From positions 6,359 through 70,358 of the forward strand of contig CAWBTX010000008.1 in NCBI GenBank assembly GCA_963791905.1: a DNA stretch of 64,000 nt. The letters are read 5' to 3'. Source of the stretch: an uncultured Gaiellaceae bacterium. GTDB taxonomy: Bacteria > Actinomycetota > Thermoleophilia > Gaiellales > Gaiellaceae. Positions 1,177-50,104 of this stretch are shown here, in pieces. A model generated the notes under the pieces. It searched no databases. It was not told where the DNA came from and was given only the letters and a program-made list of their open reading frames with translations. The position numbers were made by a program, and so were the translations under genes. The first letter of the stretch is position 1; each line of letters begins with the position of its first letter.

Positions 1177-2214
1177 GTGACCCTTCCCGGAAGCACGCGC
1201 CTGAAGGCGCTCGTGGCACTAGGGATCGTGGGCATCGCCGCCGCCGCCGCGGTGAGTACCGCGGCGGCACGTCCCGACGCGGGGCAAGGAGCGAAGCTCC
1301 GCATCGGGTACGTCCTGCCCGACCTCGCGAACCCGTTCATCGCCGGCCTCCGCGACGGCGCAGTCGTCGAGGCGAAGAAGCAGGGGATCAACTTGCTCGT
1401 GAAGGGAACGAACGACTCGAAGGGCCAGACGGACGCGATGCTCGCGTACGTCGGCGCCAAGGTCGACGCGATCGGTGTCGACGCGATCGACGGCGCAGCC
1501 ATCTCGCCCGCGGTCAAGGCGGCGAACAAGGCCGGCATTCCGGTGATAGCGATCCAGGCGCAGCCGTCGAGCGGCAAGGTCGCGACGTTCATCGCCGCCG
1601 ACAACAAGCAGGGCGGCGTGCTGATCGGAAGGTCGATCGTCGCGTACTGCAAGGGCAAGGACCCGTGCAAGCTCGGCGTCGTCGAGGGGAACCTCGCCGA
1701 CCAGTCGGGCCGGGACGAGAACGCGGGGATGCGTTCGGTCGTCTCCAAGGCGCCGAACATCGAGATCGTGGGCAATCAGCCGACCGACTACGACCCCGTG
1801 AGGGCGTTGAATGTGGCGACGAACCTGCTCACGGCGAACCCCGACCTGAACTACATCTATTCCTGGTGGGATCAGGGTGCGCTGGCTGCACTGCAGGCGG
1901 CGAAGTCAAAGGGCCTCGCCGGCAAGATCGGCATCGCCGGCTTCGGCGGCAACTGCCTCAACCTCGCGGAGGTGATCAAGGGCAACATCCACCACGAGAC
2001 CACCTTCTTCCCGCAGTCGATGGGCGCGCAGATGGTGCAGGCGGCGCAGAAGGCCATCAAGGGCCAGAAGCTGCCGGCGATCACGCCGGCGCCGATCCTC
2101 GCCGTGACGACGAACTACGCGAACGCCCTCCTCTCCGGCAAGGCGAAGCCGCCGGCCGGGCTGGGGATCATCGCGAAGCTGAAGCAGGCGAAGTCCGGCA
2201 AGTGCCCGAAGTAG
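1177..2214 (+). CDS. sugar ABC transporter substrate-binding protein (RbsB/FrcB-like periplasmic binding protein)
   Basis: GTG at 1177 follows a GGAGG at 1163..1167. There is a signal/anchor segment LKALVALGIVGIAAAAAVSTAAA. The sequence RIGYVLPDLANPFIAGLRDGA..AIGVDAIDG..KAGIPVIAI is typical of the Peripla_BP_4 family. Confidence 0.85.
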   Translation: MTLPGSTRLKALVALGIVGIAAAAAVSTAAARPDAGQGAKLRIGYVLPDLANPFIAGLRDGAVVEAKKQGINLLVKGTNDSKGQTDAMLAYVGAKVDAIGVDAIDGAAISPAVKAANKAGIPVIAIQAQPSSGKVATFIAADNKQGGVLIGRSIVAYCKGKDPCKLGVVEGNLADQSGRDENAGMRSVVSKAPNIEIVGNQPTDYDPVRALNVATNLLTANPDLNYIYSWWDQGALAALQAAKSKGLAGKIGIAGFGGNCLNLAEVIKGNIHHETTFFPQSMGAQMVQAAQKAIKGQKLPAITPAPILAVTTNYANALLSGKAKPPAGLGIIAKLKQAKSGKCPK

Positions 2215-2285
2215 AACCGCGTGAGGCGGCGGCCGGGAACCCGGCCGCCGCCCCTGCGACGGGCTGGCGGCGCGCGGCCGGCGCT

Positions 2286-3249
2286 GTGCGCACGAGCGAT
2301 CAGCTCGCCGGGTCGCTGCGCGTCGTCGGGATCCTCGTCGCGCTCGCGGGCATCTGGCTCTACTTCTCGCTCAAGTCCGAGTTCTTCCTGACGCAGCCGA
2401 ACATCTTCAACATCCTGCTGCAGGCGTCGAACGTCGGCATCATCGCGGCGGGATTGACGGTGGTGATGATCACGGGCGAGATCGATCTCTCGATCGGCTC
2501 GCTCGAGGCGCTCGCAGGTTCGGTGGCGGCGGTCGTGATCATCCGGCACGGCGAGCCGGTGTGGGTCGGCATCGCTGGCAGGCCTCGGGGCGACCGTCCT
2601 CTGCGGCCTTGTCAGCGGCTTCCTGACGTCGAGGCTCAAGGTCGTCTCGTTCATCTCGACGCTCGCCATGCTCGGGATCGCGCAGGGGATCGCGTTCCTG
2701 CTCACGAATGGCCAGGCGGTCGCCGGCTTCCCGAGCCCGTACGACAAGATCGGAACCTCCGACATCCGCGGTTTCCCGGGCGCTGTGGTCATTGCGATCG
2801 TCGTCTTTGTCGTGCTCCACCTGATGCTGACGCGGACGAAGCTCGGGGTCCAGATCTACGCGGTCGGCGGCAACGCGCAATCGGCCGCCTACGCGGGGAT
2901 CCGCGTCGGGCGCGTCAAGATGATCGCGCTCGCGATCAGCGGCCTCACGGCCGGCATCGGCGGCCTGATCGTCAGCTCGCGGCTCGACGCGGGCAACGGG
3001 CTCTTCGGCGCGGGCGACCTGCTCGGCGCGGTCGCCGCGGTCGTGATCGGCGGCACCTCGCTCTTCGGCGGGGTCGGCAGCGTCGTCGGCACCGCGATCG
3101 GCGTCGTCATGATCGCGACCATCAACAACGGGCTCGTGCTCCTGAACATCCCCGATTTCTGGCAGCAGATCGTCATCGGCTGCATCATCATCGGTGCCAT
3201 GGTGCTCGACCAGCTGGCGAAGACGGCGCGGTCGGTGATCCGCGCATGA
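2286..3249 (+). CDS. sugar ABC transporter permease (RbsC/FrcC-like), reading frame broken near 2580
   Basis: The N-terminal part (GILVALAGIWLYFSLKSEFFLTQPNIFNILLQASNVGIIAAGLTVVMITGEIDLSIGS..VWVGIAG) is in frame 0. It continues in frame 1 (GLGATVLCGLVSGFLTSRLKVVSFISTLAMLGIAQGIAFLL..). One extra base at about 2580 separates the two parts. Confidence 0.8.
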
Positions 3250-8903: not shown

Positions 8904-9581
8904 TCGCCGGTGTCGACCGTTCCGACGAGCACCTTCTCGCCCGACGAGGCCTGCTCGCCGTCGGCCTGCTCACGCGTGACGGTCAGGGTCGTGAAGTCCT
9001 TCGGCGACACGCCCGCCCACATGGTGACGTCCCGACCCTCGTTGAACGTCCCGATCGGCACGAGCACGCCGGCGGCGTTACGGAGCCACGCCTCGTAGAA
9101 TCGCCCGTCCTCGAGGCGGGGAAGGCCCGTGGCGTCGAGCTCGATCTGCCAGCCCGATGACGTCTGGGTGAGTGTGGCCTCGCCGCTGGCGCCGGGCAGC
9201 AGCGCGGTCGGCGCGAGCGCAGCATGGAGACGCTCGCCGGAGGTGTCCGAACCGAAGACGCTCAGCCCGACTGCGACGGCCAGCACAGCCGCCGCGGCGG
9301 CGCCGATCAGGCTGAGTCGGTACGGCGTCGTGCCGTCGGGCTGCTCGCCGTGGCGCCTCGATGCGCGCGCGCAGCGTCGCCGGCGCCTCGACCTCGGCCA
9401 CGGCGGACCGGGTCAGCTCGACCGCCCGTTGTTGCTCGGCAAGCCGGTCGGCGAGCTCCGACGACGCTGCTACTCGTTCCTCGAGCGCGGCACGACGCTC
9501 CGGCGAGAGCGAGCCGTCCGCGAGCGCCGCCAGTTCGACGATCTCCTGACCGGCGGCCCGATCCTGTCGTCGGCGTCTCAT
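8900..9581 (-). CDS. anti-sigma factor (RskA-like C-terminal domain), frame broken near 9348
   Basis: The N-terminal part MRRRRQDRAAGQEIVELAALADGSLSPERRAALEERVAAS..RARIEA runs from the ATG at 9581. It continues in another frame as EQPDGTTPYRLSLIGAAAAAVLAVAVGLSVF (a TM helix). The following domain GRFYEAWLRNAAGVLVPIGTF..LTVTREQADG is RskA-like. Confidence 0.6.
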
Positions 9582-9865
9582 CGACACGGCACTGCACACG
9601 GTAACGGCGAGCGTGTCACGGCGCCGCGTGCGCACGGGGAAGGCGCTGCGAACGAGCGGCGAATTCACGGGAACGGCCCAGAAAACGTGTCACACCCGGG
9701 AGGACCCCGTTCGGCCGACGCTATTCCCACGGACGACCGCCGCTGCGGGTTTCAAGGCGTTTGGGTCAGGAATAGTCGCGTTGCACAGGTAACGACTCTG
9801 TGCATGGCAAGGTCAGGCCCGAGGCCGATCGACGGCACGACCACGCACACAAAAAAGGAGGAGCG

Positions 9866-10798
9866 ATGAACACTCGACTCGTGCTTTGCGGCATGCTCGC
9901 GGCTGTCGCGGTAGCCGTCGCGACAGCGAGCGCGGCGCCGCGTCCTGACGCCTACGTCCTTCCCGGCTCGGCCGTCTTCCCGGAAGGTGTCGCGTTCCAG
10001 CCCGAAACGGGCCACTTCTTCGTCAGCAGCACGGATGACGGTTCGATCCTGCGCGGCCACGTCTCGGAGTCGGCGGCAGGTCCCTTCATCCCCGGCACGA
10101 CCGGACAGTTCTCGGCGATCGGCCTCGAGATCGACCCTGCGGGTCGGCTGTACGTGGCCGGCGGCTTCACTGGCACGGCCCGCGTCTACAACGCCGCGAG
10201 CGGCGCGCTTCTCGGCACCTTCACCTCCGGCCCGGGCGGCTTCATGAACGACGTCGTCGTCGCAAAGAACGGCGACGCCTTCGTCACCGACTCCTTCCGT
10301 TCGATCCTGTGGCGAATCCCAGCCGCGAGCGTGGGATCGTCCGGCGCGCTCGAGCCGTGGCTGAGCTACGCCGGCACGCCGATCGAGTACACGCCGGCGC
10401 CGGACGACTTCGAAGTCAACGGAATCGTGGCGAGCGACAACGGAAGGTATCTCGTCGTCGTCCAGACCAACACCGGGAAGCTGTTCCGGATCGAGATCGC
10501 GACCAAGGAGGTGGTGGAGATCGACGTCGGCGGCGCGTCGGTGAACGGCGACGGGCTCCAGCTTCTGGGGCGCAAGCTCTACGCAGTGGCCGACGGCGGC
10601 ATCGTCAAGGTCCTCCTGTCCGGCGACCTCTCGCGCGGCGAGGTGGTCTCGCGCACCACCGATCCGTCGTTCTCCTCGCCCACGACGAACGCGATCGCGC
10701 GGGGCCGCATGCTTGTCGTGAACTCGCAGTTCGACCGCCTCTTCAGCAACCAGCCGCCAGTGCTGCCGTTCACGGTCTCGAGTATCCCGCTTCCGTAG
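9866..10798 (+). CDS. secreted beta-propeller protein (SMP-30/gluconolactonase/LRE-like)
   Basis: AAGGAGG precedes the ATG at 9866. The signal peptide is MNTRLVLCGMLAAVAVAVATASA. Repeated propeller-like strands are present (FPEGVAFQPETGHFFVSS, GLEIDPAGRLYVAG, NDVVVAKNGDAFVTD). Confidence 0.7.
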   Translation: MNTRLVLCGMLAAVAVAVATASAAPRPDAYVLPGSAVFPEGVAFQPETGHFFVSSTDDGSILRGHVSESAAGPFIPGTTGQFSAIGLEIDPAGRLYVAGGFTGTARVYNAASGALLGTFTSGPGGFMNDVVVAKNGDAFVTDSFRSILWRIPAASVGSSGALEPWLSYAGTPIEYTPAPDDFEVNGIVASDNGRYLVVVQTNTGKLFRIEIATKEVVEIDVGGASVNGDGLQLLGRKLYAVADGGIVKVLLSGDLSRGEVVSRTTDPSFSSPTTNAIARGRMLVVNSQFDRLFSNQPPVLPFTVSSIPLP

Positions 10799-10984: not shown

Positions 10985-11752
10985 TCACCCCGACCTCTTT
11001 CCTTTTGCGCGTGAGCCGGCGCTGGTCGCGTCCTCGTACAGCACCGACACGAGCGCGGACATGTCGTAGCGGTCGAAGGCGTCGACATAGCGATTGACGA
11101 GTTCCGCGCCCGCGCCGTCAGTGCGACGTGCGTCTGAGGCGCTCAGCTCTCTCGTCCGGAGCGTTGCCCGGGCCCGCTGGAGGGCGCCGTCGACGGAGGC
11201 GACGCTCGTGTCGAGGAGCTCTGCGACCTCCGAGGCCTGCCAGCGCAGCGCCTCGCGCAGGATGAGGACGGCACGTTGCCTCGGCGGCAGGTGCCTGATC
11301 ATGGCCACGAGAGCAAGGCGAATGGACTCGCGGGCGAGTACCGCGTCCTCGGGGCTTTCTTCGACCGCCGCCCGACCGTCGAGCACCGGCCTGAGTGGCG
11401 TCGGCCGGACAGGCCTGTCGGCTCCGTGCGCGCTCAATTCGCCGACGAAGGCGAAGTCCATAGGCCGGGCTCGGCGCTTCCTGCCCTCGAGCACGTTGAG
11501 GCAGACGTTTGTGGCGATCCGGTAGAGCCACGCTCGGAGCGGCGCGCGCCCTTCGTAGCGTTCGAAGCCGCGCCAGGCGCGGATGAAGGTCTCCTGCACG
11601 GAGTCCTCGGCCTCGCTCGGTCCGAGCATCCGCCGGCAGAATTTGGTCAACTCGGCGCGGTGCTCCTCGAGGCGCTCGAAGAGGCCGATCGCTTCGAGAT
11701 TCTCTCGCCGCTCCACAGTCCCAGCAGTCGTCGACGCCCCGCTCGCGCACAT
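10985..11752 (-). CDS. ECF sigma factor of the SigG/SigJ type (C-terminal SnoaL/NTF2-like extension appears truncated)
   Basis: Region 2 reads [15 protein letters not shown]. Region 4 reads [41 protein letters not shown]. The start of the extension is [26 protein letters not shown], and a stop follows soon after. Confidence 0.8.
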
Positions 11753-15901: not shown

Positions 15902-17222
15902 ATGAGCGTCGTCCTCCATGCTCGCCGCGACCACTGCCTCGCGCCGGAGCGGGTCGACGCGCCGAGCGGCGAGGGCGGCCGCTACGGGCTCATGTTCGAC
16001 CTGCCGCCTCTCGTCGCCGACGAGGGCCTGCTGCACGAGCTTGGTGCGGCCGGCGGCTTCTGCGACGGCGGCGACTGCAAAGACGACGCGCGCGTCGAGG
16101 CGGGCTGGCCGTTCTTCGGGCAGTACCGTCGCGCACGATCTCACCGCCGACCGCTCGCCCCTGCGTGCGCGGACGGACCGCGACGCGCTGCGCAACATGC
16201 GCTCGCCCCGAGCGAACCTCGAGCCGCTCTACGCCGGCGGCCCCACCGGCGCGCCGTATCTGTACAGCCGTGCCGACCCCTCGAAGCTGCTCGAGAACGA
16301 GGGCGACCTGCCGCGCAATCAGGAAGGCGTCGCGCTGATCGGCGACCCCCGCAACGACGTCCACGTGTTCATGAGTCAGCTGCAGGTCGGGTTCATCCGC
16401 GCACACAATCTCCTCGTCGACCGGTTGCGCGAGGACGGCTTCGCCGATGCCGATCTCTTCGACGAGGCGCGCCGCGCGCTCACGTGGCACTACCAATGGC
16501 TCATCGTCAATGAGTTCCTGCCGGTTCTCGTCGGCTCGGACCTGGTCGACGAGATCGTCGAAACGGGCGCACGCTTCTACCACCCCGACGGCACGCCGTT
16601 CATCCCGCTCGAGTTCGCCGACGCCGCCTACCGCTACGGCCACTCGCAGATCCGCCAGCTCTACCAACTCCAGCCACACGGGCCGCTCCACCCGGTCTTT
16701 CCCGACCTGATCGGCTTCGGCCCGGTCGGCGACCACCGCGTCGACTGGTCGCTGCTGTTCGACGTCGAGGGCCGACCCCGCGCGCAGCGCGCCAAACCGA
16801 TCGACGGACGCCTTCCGCGCTCTCTGATCGACCTGCCGCAGGCGGTCACCGGCCAGGTCGACGACGAGGCCTACCGGTCGCTCGCAGCGCGCGACCTCGT
16901 GCGAGGGCAGGCGACGGGGCTCCCATCAGGCGAAGCGGTCGCCCGGCTGATCGGCGCCGACGCGCTGAACGAGGAAGATCTCGGCCTCCGACGTCACGGC
17001 TGGAAGGGCGACACGCCGCTCTGGCTCTACATCCTCCTCGAGTCGTCCTCCCGCCACGACGGCGACCGGCTCGGCGAGGTGGGCGGCCGCATCGTCGCGG
17101 AAGTTCTGATCGGAGTCATCGCCGCCGATCCAGAGTCGTACCTGGCCAACGAGCCCGGCTGGGTGCCGACGCTGGCCGCCCGCGGCGAGCGGTTCCGGCT
17201 CACGGATCTCCTCATCCCCTGA
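15902..17222 (+). CDS. animal-type haem peroxidase family protein, frame broken at about 16127
   Basis: The N-terminal part runs from the ATG at 15902 (..GLMFDLPPL..AGWPFFGQY). It continues in the +1 frame as VAHDLTADRS..NQEGVALIGDPRNDVHVFMSQLQVGFIRAHN..EFADAAYRYGHSQI. The FFGQ-x-x-HD(L/I)T and RxGHS motifs are typical of the An_peroxidase family. Confidence 0.8.
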
Positions 17223-41324: not shown

Positions 41325-41918
41325 TCACCGTTTCGCCAAGAGCGACCGCGCGGCCTCGCGCTCCCGGTCGGTGACATTGGGGTCTGCAAGCCGGTAGGCC
41401 ACGGCGTCCGGCAGCGCCTGCTCGATCTCCCGCCGGTCGAACTCGGCGAGGAAGGGTCGCACGAACGCTCGACCCCCGGCACCTCCGCTCGAGACCGCGA
41501 TCACCCAGGTCAGGGCCACGTCGAGGGCGGGATCGCCCGCACGCGCGTTCGTCCAGTCGATGACGACAGGCCCGGTCGGCGACAGCAGCACGTTGAGCGG
41601 GTGCAGGTCGAGGTGGAGGAGAGCCGCGTCCTCGTACGGGATCTCGTGCAGGTTCCGGTGCAGCGCGGCCAGCAGCCGTGCGTGCCGGCCGAGACGCCAG
41701 GGGCGCCGCCGCAGGTCCTGCATCATCGTCGGCCCTTCGACCCGCTCGAGCACGAGTGCGTCGTCACGCACCTCGTGCACGGCGGGCACCGGATACCCCG
41801 CATTGCGCGCGCGCTCCATGATCGCCGCCTCGCGGGCGGGAGCGCCGCCGCGGCGGAGGACGCGACCGTCTCCGAGATCGACGATCGTGGAGGCGCGGCC
41901 GGCTCCGAGCGGCCTCAC
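41325..41918 (-). CDS. APH/ChoK-fold phosphotransferase (small kinase)
   Basis: A GTGA overlap joins it to the thioesterase stop. The catalytic loop is HLDLHPLNVLL (HxDxxxxN), followed by VVIDWTNA (the DxG-equivalent). Confidence 0.7.
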   Translation of the reverse strand: MRPLGAGRASTIVDLGDGRVLRRGGAPAREAAIMERARNAGYPVPAVHEVRDDALVLERVEGPTMMQDLRRRPWRLGRHARLLAALHRNLHEIPYEDAALLHLDLHPLNVLLSPTGPVVIDWTNARAGDPALDVALTWVIAVSSGGAGGRAFVRPFLAEFDRREIEQALPDAVAYRLADPNVTDREREAARSLLAKR

Positions 41919-42382
41919 GGCGCGAGGCGCTGCCGCCACGCTTCTCCGGCGGCCCGGCCCTCGGGGGTCGCGAGGAAGTGCTCGAGCGGGACGTGCAAGA
42001 ACGTGCCGTCGGCCTCCGCCAGCACCTCCGAGCCGTCCCGCAACTCCGCGCTCACCTCGATCCTGCGTCCGCGCGAGGCACGCACGGAGGCGACGGCCTG
42101 GAGCTCGCGGTTGATCGGGACCGGCTTGCGGAAGCGAACGGAGATCCGCGCCGTCACTGTCGGGAACCGGTGCCAGGTGGCGAGCAGCCCGCACGCCTCG
42201 TCGAGCGCGGCGCCGACGACGCCGCCGTGGACGATGCCGGGGGCGCCCTGGTGCTCCTCGCGGAAGGTCACCGCCGACGCGTACTCCTCGATGCCGTCGC
42301 GTTCGGGCGTGACCATTCGGAGCCCGACCGGGTTGTCGCCGCAGCCGAAGCACGACGGATCGTGATGCGGCGGGATCTGCAG
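41915..42382 (-). CDS. PaaI/4HBT-type hotdog-fold thioesterase
   Basis: GIVHGGVVGAALDEACG is the hotdog core. The frame is open upstream of the ATG at 42316 and encodes the family-typical HHDPSCFGCGDNPVGL. The real start is therefore probably a non-canonical codon, for example the CTG at 42382. Confidence 0.7.
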   Translation of the reverse strand: MQIPPHHDPSCFGCGDNPVGLRMVTPERDGIEEYASAVTFREEHQGAPGIVHGGVVGAALDEACGLLATWHRFPTVTARISVRFRKPVPINRELQAVASVRASRGRRIEVSAELRDGSEVLAEADGTFLHVPLEHFLATPEGRAAGEAWRQRLAP

Positions 42383-42383
42383 C

Positions 42384-42417
42384 GCTCTAGGCCGCGAACG
42401 GCTCTAGGCCGCGAACG
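42384..42417. repeat. exact 17-bp tandem duplication (x2)
   Basis: GCTCTAGGCCGCGAACG occurs at 42384..42400 and again at 42401..42417. The second copy contains the TAG stop of the di-iron gene (42406..42404, minus strand). Confidence 0.9.
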
Positions 42418-43285
42418 GCATCTCGATGTCTGAGACGTCGAGGCCCATGCTCCTCGCCATGCGGATCCCGTCCCGGATGTCGTCCTGCAGGCGCCTGATG
42501 TCCGTCTCACGCATGACCGTTCCGATCCAGGCTCGCTCCTGCGGCCGCCAGAGCGCGTGCTGGACGAAGATCGGCAGCAGGCGGCTCGCCGCCTTCACGA
42601 GCCGGTCCTTCGTCTGCTTCGACGCGCCCTCGAGCAGGACGCGCTCGTAGGCGACACCGGCGCTGTGGTGGATGCCGTCGTCGATCGTGAGGCGGTTGCA
42701 GAGGTCCTCGAGCAGCGTGCCGCGCGACGAGCGCGCGATCAGCCGGAAGCGCGGGATGATCAGGCGCTCGAAGAACACCTGCATCTGGAACACCTTCTCC
42801 TCGAGCGTCTCGGCCTCGAGCGTCATCCTCGCCATCTCGTCGAGGTACGGGTCGCGCTCTGCGACGCCGCCGGCCTGCTCCGCGAGCTTGAGCCACGCCT
42901 CGACGTGCCGTGCCTCGTCCTGGACCATCGTCGAGTAGTAGAGCTTCGCCTCGTGGTGCGGCGCGAGGTTGAGCAGTTGGCCGGCCATCGACACGGCGAG
43001 CTCGTCTGCCTGGAGCTGCTGCGTGATCACCGAGCGCCACACGGCGCGGCGTCGCTCCTTTCGCTCCTTGGAAGCGCCCTCGCGCGTCTCCGGGATCGGC
43101 GGGATCTCGCCCCAGGGCATGTCGCGGACCTGCCACTCCTGCTTCTTGGCGAGCTCGTAGAACCGGAGCACGCCGCGGGGCTTGTCGTCCGTGGCTGCAT
43201 CCTCGGCCGCCTGCCGCTCCGCCTCGAGCAGCGGCTCGTAGGTCGCGTCGGCGTTGATCGGCTCCTCGGCCGGCTCCACGGACAT
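42404..43285 (-). CDS. ferritin-like di-iron protein (oxygenase-like, AurF/R2-like helical bundle)
   Basis: The ATG at 43285 gives MSVEPAEEP. There are two ExxH-type ligand motifs (MVQDEARHVEAW and LTIDDGIHHSAG) plus further conserved acidic residues. The precise family is not assignable by eye. Confidence 0.65.
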   Translation of the reverse strand: MSVEPAEEPINADATYEPLLEAERQAAEDAATDDKPRGVLRFYELAKKQEWQVRDMPWGEIPPIPETREGASKERKERRRAVWRSVITQQLQADELAVSMAGQLLNLAPHHEAKLYYSTMVQDEARHVEAWLKLAEQAGGVAERDPYLDEMARMTLEAETLEEKVFQMQVFFERLIIPRFRLIARSSRGTLLEDLCNRLTIDDGIHHSAGVAYERVLLEGASKQTKDRLVKAASRLLPIFVQHALWRPQERAWIGTVMRETDIRRLQDDIRDGIRMARSMGLDVSDIEMPFAA

Positions 43286-43305
43286 CGGCGCAAGCTTATA
43301 GCGCC

Positions 43306-44525
43306 CTACCGCATCCCTCCGCGTTCGTGATGGGCGCGGAAGAAGTTCTCGGAGCCCGCGGTCGCCATCGCCGACGAGGCGGAGATCTCGAGCGCGAGCG
43401 CGGCCGCGGCCACGATCTGGGCGAAGCGGTAGACCTTGCCGGAGCCGGCGCAGTCGAGCAGGGCCAGCCACGAGCGGGCGTAGGGGAGGGTGGTGCCGCC
43501 GCCGACGGTGCCGACCTCGAGGCCGGGGAAGCGGATGGTCGCGTGCAGTCCGCCTTCCTCGGTTCGGTGGGCAGTACCGTGCGCCATCGAGCTCGTTCCG
43601 ACCATGCCCAGGTCCTGCCCGGTGGCGGCGAAGAGCGCGGCGATCGCAGACGCCGGCGTGAAGGCGACGGATTGCATGCCGGAGGCCACGGCGCCGTGCG
43701 TCCCGGCCCACGAGAGCTCGAGCAGGTCGTCGACGGTCGTGCGGAGGACGCGGCGAACGGTTTCCTCGGACAGCGTCGCTTCCGCGATCACGGTCTTCCC
43801 GTGGCCCGACTGGAAGAACTCGAAGGAGGGCTTCTTGTCACCGCCCATGTTGGCCTCGAGGATCGCCCGCTCCGGCCGCACCGGCGCCTGCTGCATCACG
43901 TAGCCCATGTTCAGCGCGTACGAGTTGCGGGTCATCATGTTCGGCCCGCAGGCGTCGCCGGTCGTCCAGGCCCAGAGCACGTGGCACATCGGGCCGACGA
44001 CGTGCGTCTTGGCCTCGCGCAGCTTCGCCCGCTTCGAGAGCGAGGGGTCGTCGAGCCCAGCCAGGAACGCGCGCAGCTCGTCGAGCGAGCTCTCCAGCCA
44101 TCTTGCAAGCTGCGACGGCTTCCTCAGTGTTCTTGCAGACAAAGCATGATGCTCTGGTCATTCTGTCCTTGAGCACATATGTTCTGAACCCACCCGACGC
44201 AGCCGCAGCCTTCATCCCGCGCGACATCGACGCGGACAGGCCGCCCTCCGTGTGCGCGAGCGGTACGAGGATCTCCTCGCGCCGCGCGACTCGTCTCGCG
44301 CAGGCTCCCGGCCGGCTCCTCGAGCTCGTAGACGCCGAGCTCGAGGTCGAGCGGGCCTACGACCGAGACCGGGATGACGGCGGCGCCGGTGTGTGCCTCC
44401 TGCGCGCGCGTCCAGGCCTCGTCGTCGTGGGCCAGCGGGTCGTCGCCGACGACCGGCCGGATCGCGTCGCGCCGCGCGCGGATCGAGTCGGCGTCGTTCC
44501 TTCGAGGCCATCGGCGCAGGTTCAT
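43306..44525 (-). CDS. class-I-type HMG-CoA reductase homologue, frame broken twice (about 44278-44292 and 44105-44118)
   Basis: Three frame segments join into one protein. The segments read: (a) ..QEAHTGAAVIPVSVVGPLDLELG.., (b) ..EEILVPLAHTEGGLSASMSRGMKAAAASGGFRTYVLKDRMTRASCF.., and (c) ..TTGDACGPNMMT..GLEVGTVGGGTTLPYA..ENFFRAHHER. These correspond to ENVIG-PIPVGVAGPL, PMATTEG-L-AS-NRG, DAMGxNM, VGTVGGGT and the C-terminal catalytic His region of class I enzymes. Confidence 0.75.
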
Positions 44526-44536
44526 GGGGCGTGAGC

Positions 44537-45229
44537 TTACGGTTCGGCCCCGGCGCGGCGCCGCCGTTTCGCGGCGCGCAGATGATGCGGGAGCCGGTTG
44601 AACTCCTCCGGGCCGGCGAGTCCGACGACGGTGTGCCGGAGTGGAAAGTCGTCGGGCTCGACCGGCACGCGAAAGAGCGGCCGGACCGGGCTCGGGTTGA
44701 CCCACTCGTTTCCCCACTCGCGCCGGAAGCCGGACCGCGGGAGGACGTAGATCGCGCCGTCGGTCCAGGTCTCTTCCAGATCGGGGTCGCCGTGCACTGC
44801 GAAGTAGTAGAAGCGGCGCTGGCGCGGCGGGCGACCCAGGTGCGTGCACCCGCTCGCGACGCCCTCGGCCCGGTCGCGATCGACGGTGGCGTAGAAGAGC
44901 GGCCAGATGCCGTCGTCGCACGCGACGACGGCCGTCAGCTGCGTGTCGAGATCGCGTGCCACCTGCGGCTCGAGGGTCTCGAGAGCGCGATGGTTCGATC
45001 CGTGCAGCAGCAGGCGACGCTCGGCGACGAGATACGTGAGCAGCTCGTGAATCGGATACGGGCAGGTGCCGCGCTCGAGCGTCCCGCTCTCCTCGGCCGA
45101 GCCGGCGAGACGCTCGAAGGCCTCGCGACGGGCCGCATCGAGCTGGAGCGGCGGTTCCTCGACCGCACCCATGACGTCGACCCCGAGTCGCTCGCCGAGC
45201 CGCCAAACGGCGACTCCGACGGTACGCAT
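44537..45229 (-). CDS. hypothetical protein, first gene of the HMGR operon
   Basis: 230-aa ORF (alternative ATG at 45172) with good coding bias. It ends 11 nt before the HMGR start. I recognise no family. Confidence 0.6.
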   Translation of the reverse strand: MRTVGVAVWRLGERLGVDVMGAVEEPPLQLDAARREAFERLAGSAEESGTLERGTCPYPIHELLTYLVAERRLLLHGSNHRALETLEPQVARDLDTQLTAVVACDDGIWPLFYATVDRDRAEGVASGCTHLGRPPRQRRFYYFAVHGDPDLEETWTDGAIYVLPRSGFRREWGNEWVNPSPVRPLFRVPVEPDDFPLRHTVVGLAGPEEFNRLPHHLRAAKRRRRAGAEP

Positions 45230-46806: not shown

Positions 46807-48215
46807 CGATCGACACGCTCCGACTCACGGCCGAGGAGGCCGGCGCCATGCTCGAGCGGAAGGACGTCTCCGCCGCCGAGCTCCACGCCGCCTACCTCGC
46901 GGCCGTCGCCGAGCGCGACGACGAGCTCCACTGCTACCTCCGCACGGTCGACGAGCCGGTCGGCGGCGGCGTGCCGATCGCGCTCAAGGACGTCATCTCG
47001 ACGAAGGGGATCGAGACGACTGCGGCCTCGAAGATCCTCGAGGGCTACGTCCCCGTCTTCGACTCGACGGTTGCGGCGCGCTGCAAGGAGGCCGGCCTGC
47101 CGCTCATCGGCAAGACGAACACGGACGAGTTCGCGATGGGCTCGTCGACGGAGAACTCCGCGTACGGGCCGTCGCGCAACCCCTGGGATCCCGAGCGCGT
47201 GCCGGGTGGCTCCGGCGGGGGGTCCGCAGCGGCCGTGTCCGGGGGTCTGGCCCCGTGGGCGCTCGGCTCGGACACGGGCGGGTCGATCAAGCAGCCGTCG
47301 GCGCTGTGCGGCAACGTCGGACTCCGTCCGACCTACGGCACGGTCAGCCGCTACGGCATCGTCGCGTTCGCCTCCAGCCTCGATCAGGTCGGGCCGGTCG
47401 CGAAGAACGTGCGCGACTGCGCGCTCCTCTACTCGATCATCGCCGGCAAGGACCCGTGTGACTCGACCACCGTCGAGCTGCCGGAGGAGGTGCAGCTGCC
47501 GGACGCCGAGGACCTGAAGGGCGTCCGCATCGGCGTGCCCAAGGAGATGAACGAGGCGGAGGGGATCGAGCCCGGCGTCGCGGAGGCAGTACGCGCTGCG
47601 ATCGACCTCGCCGCCGACCTCGGCGCCGAGGTGGCGGAGTGCGAGCTGCCGCGCTCGGTCGAGTACGGGCTCGCCTGCTACTACCTGATCGCACCGGCGG
47701 AGGCGTCCGCGAACCTTGCGCGCTACGACGGCGTCCGCTACGGGCCCCGCGTCGACGCCGACGGCTATTACGCGATGGTCGAGCGCACGCGCGACGCCGG
47801 CTTCGGCGACGAGCCGAAGCGTCGCATCATGCTCGGCACGTACGCGCTCTCCGCCGGCTACTACGACGCGTACTACGGCCAGGCCCAGAGGGTGCGGACG
47901 GTGATCGCGCGCGAGCACGCCGCCGCATTCGAGCGCTTCGACGTCCTGGTCTCGCCGACCTCGCCGACGGTCGCGTTCAGACTGGGGGAGAAGGCGGCCA
48001 ACCCGCTCGCCATGTACCTCTCCGACCTGCTCACGATCCCGTCGTGCATGGCTGGTCTGCCGGGGCTGAGCATCCCGTGCGGGCTTTCGGACGGTCTGCC
48101 GGTCGGCCTGCAGCTGATCGGGCCACAGTTCTCCGAGAACACGCTCTTTCGCACCGGCCACGCACTCGAGCGCGCGCTCGCCTTCGATCCCGTTCCGGAG
48201 CGGCTCCGTGGCTAG
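46803..48215 (+). CDS. gatA: Asp/Glu-tRNA amidotransferase subunit A
   Basis: [11 protein letters not shown] and [11 protein letters not shown] are amidase-signature motifs. 470 aa. Confidence 0.95.
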
Positions 48216-49616
48216 CTGGCAGCCCGTCGTCGGGCTGGAGATCCACGTCCAGCTGAAAACGCGGTCGAAGATGTTCTGCGGCTGCGCGAACGGCTTCGGC
48301 GGCGGCGAGAACACGCAGACCTGCCCGGTCTGCCTCGGCTTCCCCGGCGCGCTCCCCGTCGCGAACCGGACGGCGATCGAGTGGACGATCAAGCTCGGCC
48401 TCGCCCTCGACTGCGAGATCGCCGATCGCGCCGTGTTCTCGCGCAAGAGCTACGTCTACCCGGACTTGCCGAAGGGCTATCAGATCTCACAATATGATCT
48501 ACCGTCTTGCATCAACGGCAAGGTGGTAGTGCCAAGCGGCGACGGCGACATCGAGGTGGGCATCGTGCGGGCGCACCTCGAGGAGGACGCGGCGAAGACG
48601 ACGCACGTCGGCGGACGCACCGGCCGGATCGGCGGCGCCGCCTACTCCCTCGTCGACTTCAACCGTGGCGGCACGCCGCTCGTCGAGATCGTCACCGGCC
48701 CCGACATCCATTCCTCCGAGGACGCTCGCCGCTTCCTGCAGCTGCTCCGGCAGGCGATCGTCGAGCTCGGCATCTCGGACGCGGAGATGGAGAAGGGAAC
48801 GCTCCGTGTCGACGCGAACGTCTCGGTGCGGCCGAGCGGCTCGGACGAGCTGCGCACCCGCTGCGAGCTGAAGAACATGAACTCGTTCCGCTTCGTCGCC
48901 CAGGGAATCGACGCCGAGGTCAAACGGCAGATCGCGATCTACGAGGCCGGCGGGGAGGTCGAGCAGGAGACCTACGACTTCGACGCGTCCACCGGGACGC
49001 TCACGGCGAGCCGCTCGAAGGAGGAGGCCGACGACTACCGCTACTTCCCCGAGCCGGATCTCGTCCCGATCGAGCCGCCGGCGGAACTCGTGGAGCGCGT
49101 GCGCGCGGAGCTGCCGGAGGCTCCCGGAGCGCGCATCCGGCGCCTCGAGCGAGAGCTCGATCTCGACCGCGCCACCGTCCTCGTCACGGGCGGCCTCGAC
49201 ACGCTCTGGGAGGCGACCGTGGCGGCCGGCGCCGATCGCCTCGGCGCGGCGAACCTGATCGCCAACCGGCTCGCCGGCATCGACGGCGCCAGCCGTCGAC
49301 GCCGCCGAGCTCGCCAAGCTCGTCGAGGCCCGCGACCGCATCCCGCGGGCAGCGCTCGACGAGGCGATCGCCCAGGTGAGCCGAGCCGGGCTTCTCCGCC
49401 GCGCCGTACCTCGCGCAGGAGGCGGTCTCCGACACGGGCGAGCTCGAGCCCGTCGTCGAGCGCATCCTCGAGGCGAACGCCGGCCAGGTCGCCGCGTACC
49501 GCTCGGGCAAGGAAGGTCTGCTCGGCTTCTTCGTCGGTCAGGTCATGAAGGAGACCGGCGGCAAGGCCAACCCGCGGGTCGTGAGCGAGCTCGTGAGGGA
49601 GAAGCTGAAGGCGTGA
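48208..49616 (+). CDS. gatB: Asp/Glu-tRNA amidotransferase subunit B, frame broken twice (about 49291 and 49391)
   Basis: [39 protein letters not shown] are GatB motifs. The tail is recovered only by two successive +1 shifts. It reads ..[83 protein letters not shown], ending at the TGA at 49614..49616. Confidence 0.9.
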
Positions 49617-50104
49617 ATCCCGAGTACCGCCGCATCGCGCTCATCGCGGCCGGCCTCGGGCTGATCCTGAGCCTCTTCTTCGCGCTCCGCGACGACGGCG
49701 ACGACGAGGCGGCTACGACGACGCCCACGGTCGCAACCACGACCCAGGCGACCACGACCCAGGCGACCACGACGGCCCCGGCGACGACGACGGAGCCGCC
49801 CGCGACGACGACCGAGCCGACGCCGCCCCCGCCGCCGTACCGCGTCACGATCAGGCTCCGCGTCGTCGGTGGCCAGCCGGTGCCCGGGATCCGCCGGGCG
49901 AAGGTGAAGCAGGGCCGTCAGGTCGAGATCGTCACCACGGCCGACGTCACCGACCACATCCACCTCCACGGCTACGACCTGATGGCCGACGTCGCGCCCG
50001 GCATGCCCGCCCGCATCCGCTTCCGGGCCACGATTCCCGGTCGCTTCGAGGTCGAGCTCGAGGACCGCGGCGTCCCGATCGCCGATCTCTCAGTCACGCC
50101 TTGA
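49613..50104 (+). CDS. membrane-anchored Thr/Pro-rich protein with cupredoxin-like C-terminal domain
   Basis: A GTGA overlap joins it to the gatB stop. The TM helix is [18 protein letters not shown] and the linker is [35 protein letters not shown]. The beta domain ..[29 protein letters not shown] follows. Confidence 0.6.

Follow-up and report, generated by a model that had tools for sequence, protein, structure and literature searches.

The window analysed here, a 64-kb stretch (GC content 70%) of a genome from the Gaiellaceae (Thermoleophilia), carries at positions 41325–45229 five genes on the minus strand, among them a homologue of HMG-CoA reductase (HMGR) and, next to it, a gene specifying a predicted di-iron oxygenase-like protein. 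Judged by sequence, the first belongs to a divergent HMGR subfamily and the second to a new di-iron oxygenase clade, and the two are conserved as a pair across the Gaiellales; no description of an HMGR/di-iron pairing was found in the literature. The reading favoured here, with confidence evenly balanced for and against it, is that the locus encodes a Gaiellales-specific, conserved and vertically inherited module for the oxygenation and reduction of an acyl-CoA, rather than a step of the mevalonate pathway. An initial annotation, made from the DNA letters of the window, had placed five minus-strand genes here; all five were indeed found to be co-directional, and the families proposed for four of their products (HMGR, di-iron protein, thioesterase and kinase) held.

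The HMGR homologue (43306..44525, minus strand; ATG at 44525, TAG at 43308–43306) is a putative class-I-like thioester reductase of about 405 aa. It matched PF00368 (HMG-CoA_red) with 264.6 bits (cut-off 27; E = 1.8e-78), and among solved structures 6HR7, an archaeal class I HMGR, matched best (7e-49), with those of the plant and human enzymes coming next. The NCBIfam equivalog TIGR00533 was not reached: the intact relative P0002 (90% identity), used as the query, scored 185.2 bits versus a cut-off of 441.8. Residues were compared using a profile alignment to the human, plant and archaeal class I structures, plus a 13-sequence family alignment; reference residues are given in human numbering. 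The class-I landmarks reported in the initial annotation are present in the form of the motifs TEGGLSAS, GDACGPNM and VGTVGGGT, and the catalytic residues Glu559, Lys691 and Asp767 are retained as E91 (in AHTEGG), K229 (in GGDKKP) and D303 (in TGQD), all invariant in the 13 family members. Also kept and family-invariant are the equivalent of Arg590, Asp690 and Lys692 of the cis-loop DKK, and the motifs DAxGxN and GTVGGGT. The likeness to class I enzymes ends, however, at four residues that are identical in the human, Arabidopsis and Methanothermococcus enzymes and are all replaced in the Gaiellales homologue, each replacement being fixed in the 13-sequence alignment. Ser684 becomes an invariant Glu (E222, in LEANMGGDKK); Lys735 becomes G273 or A272, with zero Lys or Arg across residues 265–280; Asn755 becomes Ser or Thr (S291 in the window protein); and His752 becomes Thr288, NAHxxN turning into AFTPA[ST]. 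Ser684 and Asn755 were assigned by their ungapped spacing from the DKK and GQD motifs. As to the C-terminal catalytic His that had been read in the sequence, the position of His866 aligns to Phe or to a 3-residue insertion, and the invariant pair H397–H398, which sits 4–5 residues downstream, fails to align with it.

Work on the human and plant enzymes (PMC9500038) assigns Ser684 and Asn755 to conserved polar contacts with the HMG moiety and Lys735 to a salt bridge with its terminal carboxylate; it also counts Asn755 as part of the Glu/Lys/Asn/Asp catalytic network. Since Ser684, Lys735 and Asn755 are replaced and the equivalog cut-off is missed, the protein is, as far as its sequence goes, a member of the HMGR fold family that fails several defining features of HMG-CoA reductase proper. 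Public annotations name the gene HMG-CoA reductase, the automatic name being 'HMG-CoA reductase (NADPH)'. The loss of both carboxylate binders, together with the gain of an acidic residue in the pocket, suggests that the substrate would be an acyl-CoA without a terminal carboxylate.

The second member of the pair (42404..43285, minus strand; ATG at 43285, TAG at 42406–42404) is 293 aa long and resembles di-iron (di-metal carboxylate) oxygenases. It passed no Pfam or NCBIfam threshold, giving sub-threshold matches to MiaE, PaaA_PaaC (17.5 bits versus a cut-off of 28.5) and R2lox; its automatic name at JGI is PaaA-like. An AlphaFold2 (AF2) model built from 26 homologues had a pLDDT of 78 and a pTM of 0.75, with a confident core, and Foldseek matched this model to ribonucleotide reductase (RNR) R2 and R2lox (probability 1.0, template modelling score about 0.6). 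The candidate metal ligands D94, E124xxH127, E173 and D203xxH206 are invariant down to 26–39% identity. Two ExxH-type motifs had been noted in the initial annotation; the first is present as described, whereas the second is actually DxxH (D203..H206). With its helical bundle, two (D/E)xxH motifs and two further carboxylates, the modelled protein is a predicted member of the ferritin-like/R2-like di-metal carboxylate proteins. A full scan of 1.84 billion representatives returned 404 relatives, many of them fragments. Those at 29–32% identity pass the threshold of AurF PF11583 (32–48 bits, cut-off 29.6), and distant relatives just miss that of Ald_deCOase PF11266 (25.5 bits versus 28); the window protein itself matched neither model. 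Sequence and model together place it, by prediction, in the R2-like fold, within a small clade that no Pfam family covers and that lies close to AurF and aldehyde-deformylating oxygenase (ADO). A profile search with the distant members returned mostly Gaiellaceae again, and two distant matches lie on contigs of 1.4–2.5 kb with uninformative neighbours. On a lower-GC metagenome contig (locus L089), a di-iron homologue (356–1150) is convergent with a gene for a Rieske-type oxygenase alpha subunit (1276–2433, minus strand; motif CxH...CxxH), and genes for an HDOD protein, aroE and a threonine-synthase-like product lie nearby.

To measure linkage, the five proteins were compared by tblastn with 82 Gaiellales loci, each with up to 10 kb of flank. 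These counts were used because single-linkage clustering of open reading frames (ORFs) merged the HMGR, di-iron and thioesterase genes, non-coding frames being open at high GC. The di-iron gene was the immediate neighbour of the HMGR gene in 61/82 loci, lying downstream on the same strand in 37 of them, upstream and divergent in 20, and upstream on the same strand in 4. A further 7 loci had it elsewhere in the flank, at distances from HMGR of up to about 8.5 kb, and 14 lacked it in the fetched flank. The existence of three arrangements indicates that the linkage between the two genes has outlived rearrangement. The thioesterase gene lay downstream of the HMGR or di-iron gene in at least 54 of the loci. 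The kinase gene was detected in 7 loci, in close and distant clades and always directly after the thioesterase gene, and the gene for the 230-aa protein in 8, all of them close relatives. The tight five-gene operon proposed in the initial annotation is thus reduced to an HMGR/di-iron pair usually accompanied by a thioesterase, the kinase and 230-aa genes being sporadic; likewise, conservation of the neighbourhood in related genomes, which had been put forward as a check, holds for the pair but not for the full five-gene set. The closest relatives of the window are all Gaiellaceae or Gaiellales metagenome-assembled genomes (MAGs), and the locus is invariably found beside folD-cspA-gatCAB, which makes it a vertically inherited part of the Gaiellales chromosome and not an island. 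In more distant Gaiellales, small ABM (antibiotic-biosynthesis-monooxygenase-like) and SRPBCC/Polyketide_cyc proteins are encoded between or after the di-iron and HMGR genes, sometimes at the place of the thioesterase gene (for example at 9288–9990 and 11278–11727 in L083, and at 11200–11496 in L085); these neighbours are further hints of a small hydrophobic ligand.

The HMGR reading frame is interrupted twice in the window, as had been pointed out, by single extra bases at about 44284 and about 44113. They were located by DNA alignment with the intact genes of the related loci L001, L002 and L004 (HMGR proteins 90–92% identical), in which the gene measures 1218 nt versus 1220 nt in the window. 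In the sequence as it stands, the two +1 insertions lead to a stop at about codon 135, and neither of them lies inside a homopolymer, as might be expected of a real pseudogene inactivated by two frameshifts. This explanation is nevertheless highly improbable. The gatB gene (48144–49620) contains two single-C insertions, at 49289 and 49381, and the genes for PhyH, an amidase, a DegT-aminotransferase and RecQ are each split into two frames (at about 4345, 5638, 57545 and 63089), both halves matching the same or complementary Pfam domains, so that the 64 kb hold at least eight frameshifts. Once corrected, the HMGR gene shows zero stops and is under purifying selection, with a ratio of non-synonymous to synonymous substitution rates (dN/dS) of about 0.08 over its whole length and about 0.07 in the interval that the two frameshifts bound. 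The Microflora Danica MAG set, which is Nanopore-only (PMC12313526), supplies most of the nearest relatives, and those MAGs carry comparable one-base insertions, for example in the di-iron gene of L003. The pattern across the window probably reflects indels of long-read assembly. Since gatB, recQ and other genes are broken alike, and since the corrected gene has no stops and a dN/dS of about 0.08, the indels are probably artefacts and the organism very probably has an intact HMGR gene; the concern that it might be dead most likely stems from an assembly defect that essential genes in the window share. The insertions in HMGR and gatB are each paired, 90–170 nt apart, and 0/4 fall inside a homopolymer.

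One stretch of the HMGR gene differs in codon usage from the rest. A patch of 34 codons (GGFRTYVL.DRMTRASCF.CK.TEEAV; window positions about 44110–44200, codons about 109–142) has a low GC content at third codon positions (GC3): values lie between 0.44 and 0.65 within the window's clade, and the median over all loci, in a comparison of the patch in 64 related loci, is 0.73, versus about 0.94 for the HMGR gene outside it. Rare AGA codons within the patch are conserved at the DNA level. The frameshift at 44113 coincides with the 3′ edge of the patch, and that at 44284 lies about 85 nt upstream of it. The low GC3 may reflect a constraint on synonymous sites, such as a translational pause or a signal embedded in the RNA or DNA.

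The gene downstream of the di-iron gene (41915..42382, minus strand; TGA at 41917–41915, likely CTG start at 42382) specifies a hotdog-fold 4HBT/PaaI-like acyl-CoA thioesterase. It scored 43.4 bits with PF03061 (4HBT; cut-off 20.6) and did not reach the PaaI equivalog TIGR02286 (25.4 bits versus 118.9); by its sequence it is a generic hotdog protein of the 4HBT/PaaI superfamily and not PaaI. Among solved structures, 2OV9 and the acyl-CoA thioesterases THEM4 and THEM5 come nearest to it. A conserved N-terminal motif, IPPHHDPxC[FW]GCG, is a possible His2Cys2 metal site. The frame is free of stops from 42403 on, and the conserved N-terminus starts at 42379, ahead of the first ATG (42316); no canonical start codon is present in the window at the conserved N-terminus, the CTG at 42382 being the likely start. 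Many other genomes also lack a canonical start (L002, L011, L012, L047, L054, L057, L058, L062 and L077). The N-terminal motif starts 1–3 codons past the upstream stop, and the putative start is a CTG overlapping TGA (CTGA) in some loci and an ATA overlapping TAG (ATAG) in others. These overlaps, and the position of the motif hard behind the upstream stop, suggest that the thioesterase may be translated by termination-reinitiation coupling at near-cognate start codons. The same junction contains a perfect 17-nt tandem duplication (GCTCTAGGCCGCGAACG x2, at 42384..42417) that spans the di-iron stop codon and the thioesterase leader and copies the final codons of the di-iron gene along with its stop; the duplication has no counterpart at the junction in L001 and L004, and may be real or an assembly artefact.

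The two remaining genes are accessory. The last one (41325..41918, minus strand; GTG start at 41918) specifies an APH/ChoK/RIO-like kinase of 197 aa that scored 54 bits with PF01636 (APH; cut-off 23.2) and 41 bits with RIO1. The motifs HLDLHPLN (HxDxxxxN) and IDW, read in its sequence, correspond to the ChoK/APH catalytic loop, while NCBIfam gave fragment matches to thiamine kinase and Bud32 models, far below their cut-offs, and no equivalog. The initial assignment of an APH/ChoK rather than a GHMP fold is borne out by the Pfam matches, which are to APH and RIO1 only; no GHMP family occurs among the families listed for the called genes of the window. The first gene (44537..45229, minus strand; TAA at 44539–44537) specifies a hypothetical protein of 230 aa to which no family could be assigned: it had no match in Pfam, NCBIfam or PHROGs and no solved-structure match in a profile search, and its single-sequence AF2 model (pLDDT 35) was unusable. 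These results lend no weight to the ART-like fold guessed at in the initial annotation, nor do they speak against it. Homologues with 47–64% identity and conserved motifs are encoded upstream of HMGR in related genomes, and by this comparison it is a real conserved ORF. As to spacing, the initial annotation gave gaps of 11, 20 and about 21 nt plus one overlap. The gap of 11 nt between the 230-aa ORF and HMGR, that of 20 nt between HMGR and the di-iron gene, and the GTGA overlap of the thioesterase stop with the kinase start were all recovered, whereas the 21-nt gap exists only if the thioesterase starts at the CTG at 42382. Scans for promoters and terminators found none, a result that is uninformative at a GC content of 70%. 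Elsewhere in the window, a protein of the animal-haem-peroxidase family (An_peroxidase) is encoded at 16127–17216, possibly frameshifted at about 16126, and a protein with RTX repeats (HemolysinCabind) within the first 20 kb.

The statement in the initial annotation that the window contains no mevalonate-pathway genes agrees with the present analysis, in which no mevalonate-pathway family, nor any of the methylerythritol phosphate (MEP) pathway, was present among those listed for the called genes of the 64 kb. In six related loci whose flanks (±10 kb) were annotated with Pfam, neither mevalonate nor MEP genes came up, and no mevalonate genes appeared among the neighbour-gene clusters that recur within ±6 kb across the 82 loci. 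Conexibacter, a cultured class-mate, and Rubrobacter were scored as MEP-only in a genus-level table (PMC13001223 supplement). Literature searches for Gaiella or Thermoleophilia with mevalonate gave nothing relevant beyond this table, and nothing relevant was found on an orphan HMGR with a ferritin-like partner or on HMGR-like gene clusters. The idea, already raised in the initial annotation, that the locus does something other than ordinary mevalonate synthesis fits the replacement of Lys735, Ser684 and Asn755, the missed equivalog cut-off and the conserved di-iron neighbour.

In the module proposed here, the core pair would consist of an HMGR-fold, NAD(P)H-dependent thioester reductase and an R2/AurF-like di-iron oxygenase of the new clade. 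The reductase would have kept its hydride-transfer machinery (Glu, Lys, Asp, the cis-loop DKK and the Arg590 equivalent) and lost the binders of the HMG carboxylate. Using O2, the di-iron enzyme would oxygenate a non-HMG acyl-CoA (through hydroxylation, desaturation or N-oxygenation), and the reductase would convert the thioester, via the aldehyde, into a primary alcohol in a four-electron reduction; equally, the order might be the reverse, the oxygenase acting on the reduction product and not on the acyl-CoA. The hotdog thioesterase would hydrolyse CoA esters that have stalled or left the pathway. Where the ChoK/APH-like kinase is encoded, in a minority of lineages that includes the window's, it might phosphorylate the alcohol, much as mevalonate kinase follows HMGR. 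The class of substrate, the order of the steps and the product are inferred. A more specific version is tentative, and we regard it as possible rather than probable. In it, the Gaiellales would have a two-enzyme route, composed of a re-tooled HMGR-fold reductase and an AurF/ADO-like oxygenase, whose product would be a primary alcohol, diol or hydrocarbon of a new class, with a ChoK-like kinase phosphorylating it in some lineages; the starting acyl-CoA, different from HMG-CoA, might carry no charge or a positive one, as a hydroxy-fatty or an amino/ammonio-acyl-CoA would.

Several observations weigh against the proposed acyl-CoA module. The Ser or Thr found at the Asn755 position, together with the nearby His-His pair, could preserve normal HMGR chemistry, and some other basic residue could bind the carboxylate in three dimensions. 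Adjacency is linkage, not a shared substrate, and about 9/82 loci have ample sequence on both sides of HMGR and no adjacent di-iron gene. A reductase or ferredoxin partner for the di-iron protein was not found encoded nearby. Finally, the di-iron homologue of L089 (42% identity, from the metagenome scan) has no HMGR neighbour; since L089, the single locus with usable context, has a Rieske neighbour instead, an association with HMGR may characterise the Gaiellales clade and not the di-iron family at large. The HMGR homologue might instead be an ordinary class I enzyme producing mevalonate, with the other pathway genes elsewhere in the genome and functionally unrelated neighbours. This would agree with the strong match to PF00368 and the public annotation as HMG-CoA reductase, with the conservation of E559, K691, D767, R590, D690 and K692, and with a housekeeping neighbourhood and strong purifying selection. 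It is unlikely, however, given that Lys735, Ser684, Asn755 and His752, conserved in the human, plant and archaeal enzymes, are all replaced, that the score is 185 bits against a 442-bit equivalog cut-off, and that linkage to the di-iron gene persists through three arrangements. The lack of mevalonate genes in the window listing, the six ±10 kb flanks and the recurrent ±6 kb neighbours of the 82 loci points in the same direction, as does the listing of the cultured relatives Conexibacter and Rubrobacter as MEP users (PMC13001223).

Two further explanations keep the pair together and assign it other chemistry. The module might be catabolic, the HMGR-fold enzyme working oxidatively (alcohol + CoA + two NAD(P)+ → acyl-CoA) and the oxygenase and thioesterase processing the resulting CoA ester in the manner of the Paa or Box pathways. 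Oxidative HMGRs are known, that of Pseudomonas mevalonii working in this direction in mevalonate catabolism; a PaaI-like thioesterase is encoded alongside, and the di-iron protein has a PaaA-like name at JGI and a weak PaaA_PaaC match. We nonetheless consider a catabolic role quite unlikely, since the PaaA and PaaI models score far under their cut-offs, no PaaB/C/D/E or BoxA-like partners, ring-opening enzyme or beta-oxidation genes occur nearby, and the conserved housekeeping location speaks against a niche catabolic island. The absence of partner genes nearby and the housekeeping position also led to the rejection of a phenylacetate (Paa) pathway, a benzoyl-CoA (Box) pathway and a secondary-metabolite cluster as such. 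Alternatively, the pair might resemble acyl-ACP reductase (AAR) and ADO, the HMGR-fold enzyme releasing an aldehyde that the di-iron enzyme deformylates or oxidises to a hydrocarbon or an acid. The adjacency of genes for a thioester reductase and a ferritin-like di-iron oxygenase would be explained, distant di-iron relatives come close to PF11266 (25.5 bits versus 28), and the loss of Asn755 and of an aligned His866 could alter the second half-reaction. Yet HMGR enzymes normally retain the aldehyde, and the catalytic Glu, Lys and Asp on which the second reduction depends are still present; moreover, the window di-iron protein has no PF11266 match, and the best Pfam relationship of its relatives is to AurF and not to aldehyde-deformylating oxygenase. 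An AAR/ADO-like division of labour therefore appears very unlikely.

Only one substrate pair, HMG-CoA and mevalonate, is known to us for the HMGR family. If the more specific two-enzyme route is real, its reductase would provide the first non-HMG substrate specificity within the family, and a clade that keeps the hydride chemistry with replaced HMG-binding residues would extend HMGR enzymology. This HMGR clade would be fixed across a widespread and almost uncultured order of soil bacteria, and locked to a new family of di-iron oxygenases. It would also flag a systematic mis-annotation, the automatic names 'HMG-CoA reductase (NADPH)' and 'PaaA', because of which mevalonate or phenylacetate metabolism may be wrongly attributed to Gaiellales in metabolic reconstructions. 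Both members of the pair are small and soluble, and easily tested in vitro.

When compared with known systems, the reductase shares with class I HMGRs (6HR7, 7ULI and 1DQ8) the PF00368 match, a full-length alignment of the catalytic domain, the TEG Glu, DKK, the GQD Asp, Arg590, DAxGxN and GTVGGGT. It differs from them in scoring only 125–170 bits to the canonical enzymes and falling below the NCBI equivalog cut-off, in having AHTEGG instead of ATTEG, in the changes Ser684→Glu, Lys735→Gly/Ala, Asn755→Ser/Thr and His752→Thr, in the unaligned His866, and in the lack of mevalonate-pathway neighbours. Stand-alone HMGRs occur in bacteria in which a mevalonate pathway is not known, for example the class II HMGR of Burkholderia cenocepacia; those enzymes have intact HMG-binding sites. 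The Gaiellales homologue resembles such stand-alone class II enzymes in having no mevalonate-pathway neighbours, but is class-I-like and has an altered substrate site and a fixed di-iron partner.

The di-iron protein has in common with the p-aminobenzoate N-oxygenase AurF and with ADO (PF11583 and PF11266), RNR R2 and R2lox a predicted four-helix di-metal carboxylate core with six ligands and the R2-like fold (template modelling score about 0.6), and its relatives at about 30% identity pass the AurF threshold. In contrast to AurF and ADO, its ligands follow the order D...ExxH...E...DxxH, with two Asp instead of Glu, it passes no family threshold, and it has a distinctive N-terminal YELAKKQEWQVRDLPWGEIPPIPE segment, its clade being confined to 404 of 1.84 billion representatives. 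At the level of the whole locus, the combination of a di-iron oxygenase that would act on a CoA thioester with a hotdog thioesterase that would clear CoA esters recalls the roles played by the phenylacetyl-CoA epoxidase PaaABCDE and the thioesterase PaaI; however, no PaaB/C/D/E are present in the annotated Gaiellales neighbourhoods, the PaaA_PaaC and PaaI scores are low (17.5 versus 28.5 and 25 versus 119, respectively), and the HMGR-fold reductase partner of the Gaiellales has no equivalent in the Paa pathway. The cyanobacterial acyl-ACP reductase and ADO that make alkanes likewise have adjacent genes for a thioester reductase and a ferritin-like di-iron oxygenase, but the Gaiellales reductase has an HMGR fold, unrelated to AAR, and its di-iron partner remains under the ADO family threshold.

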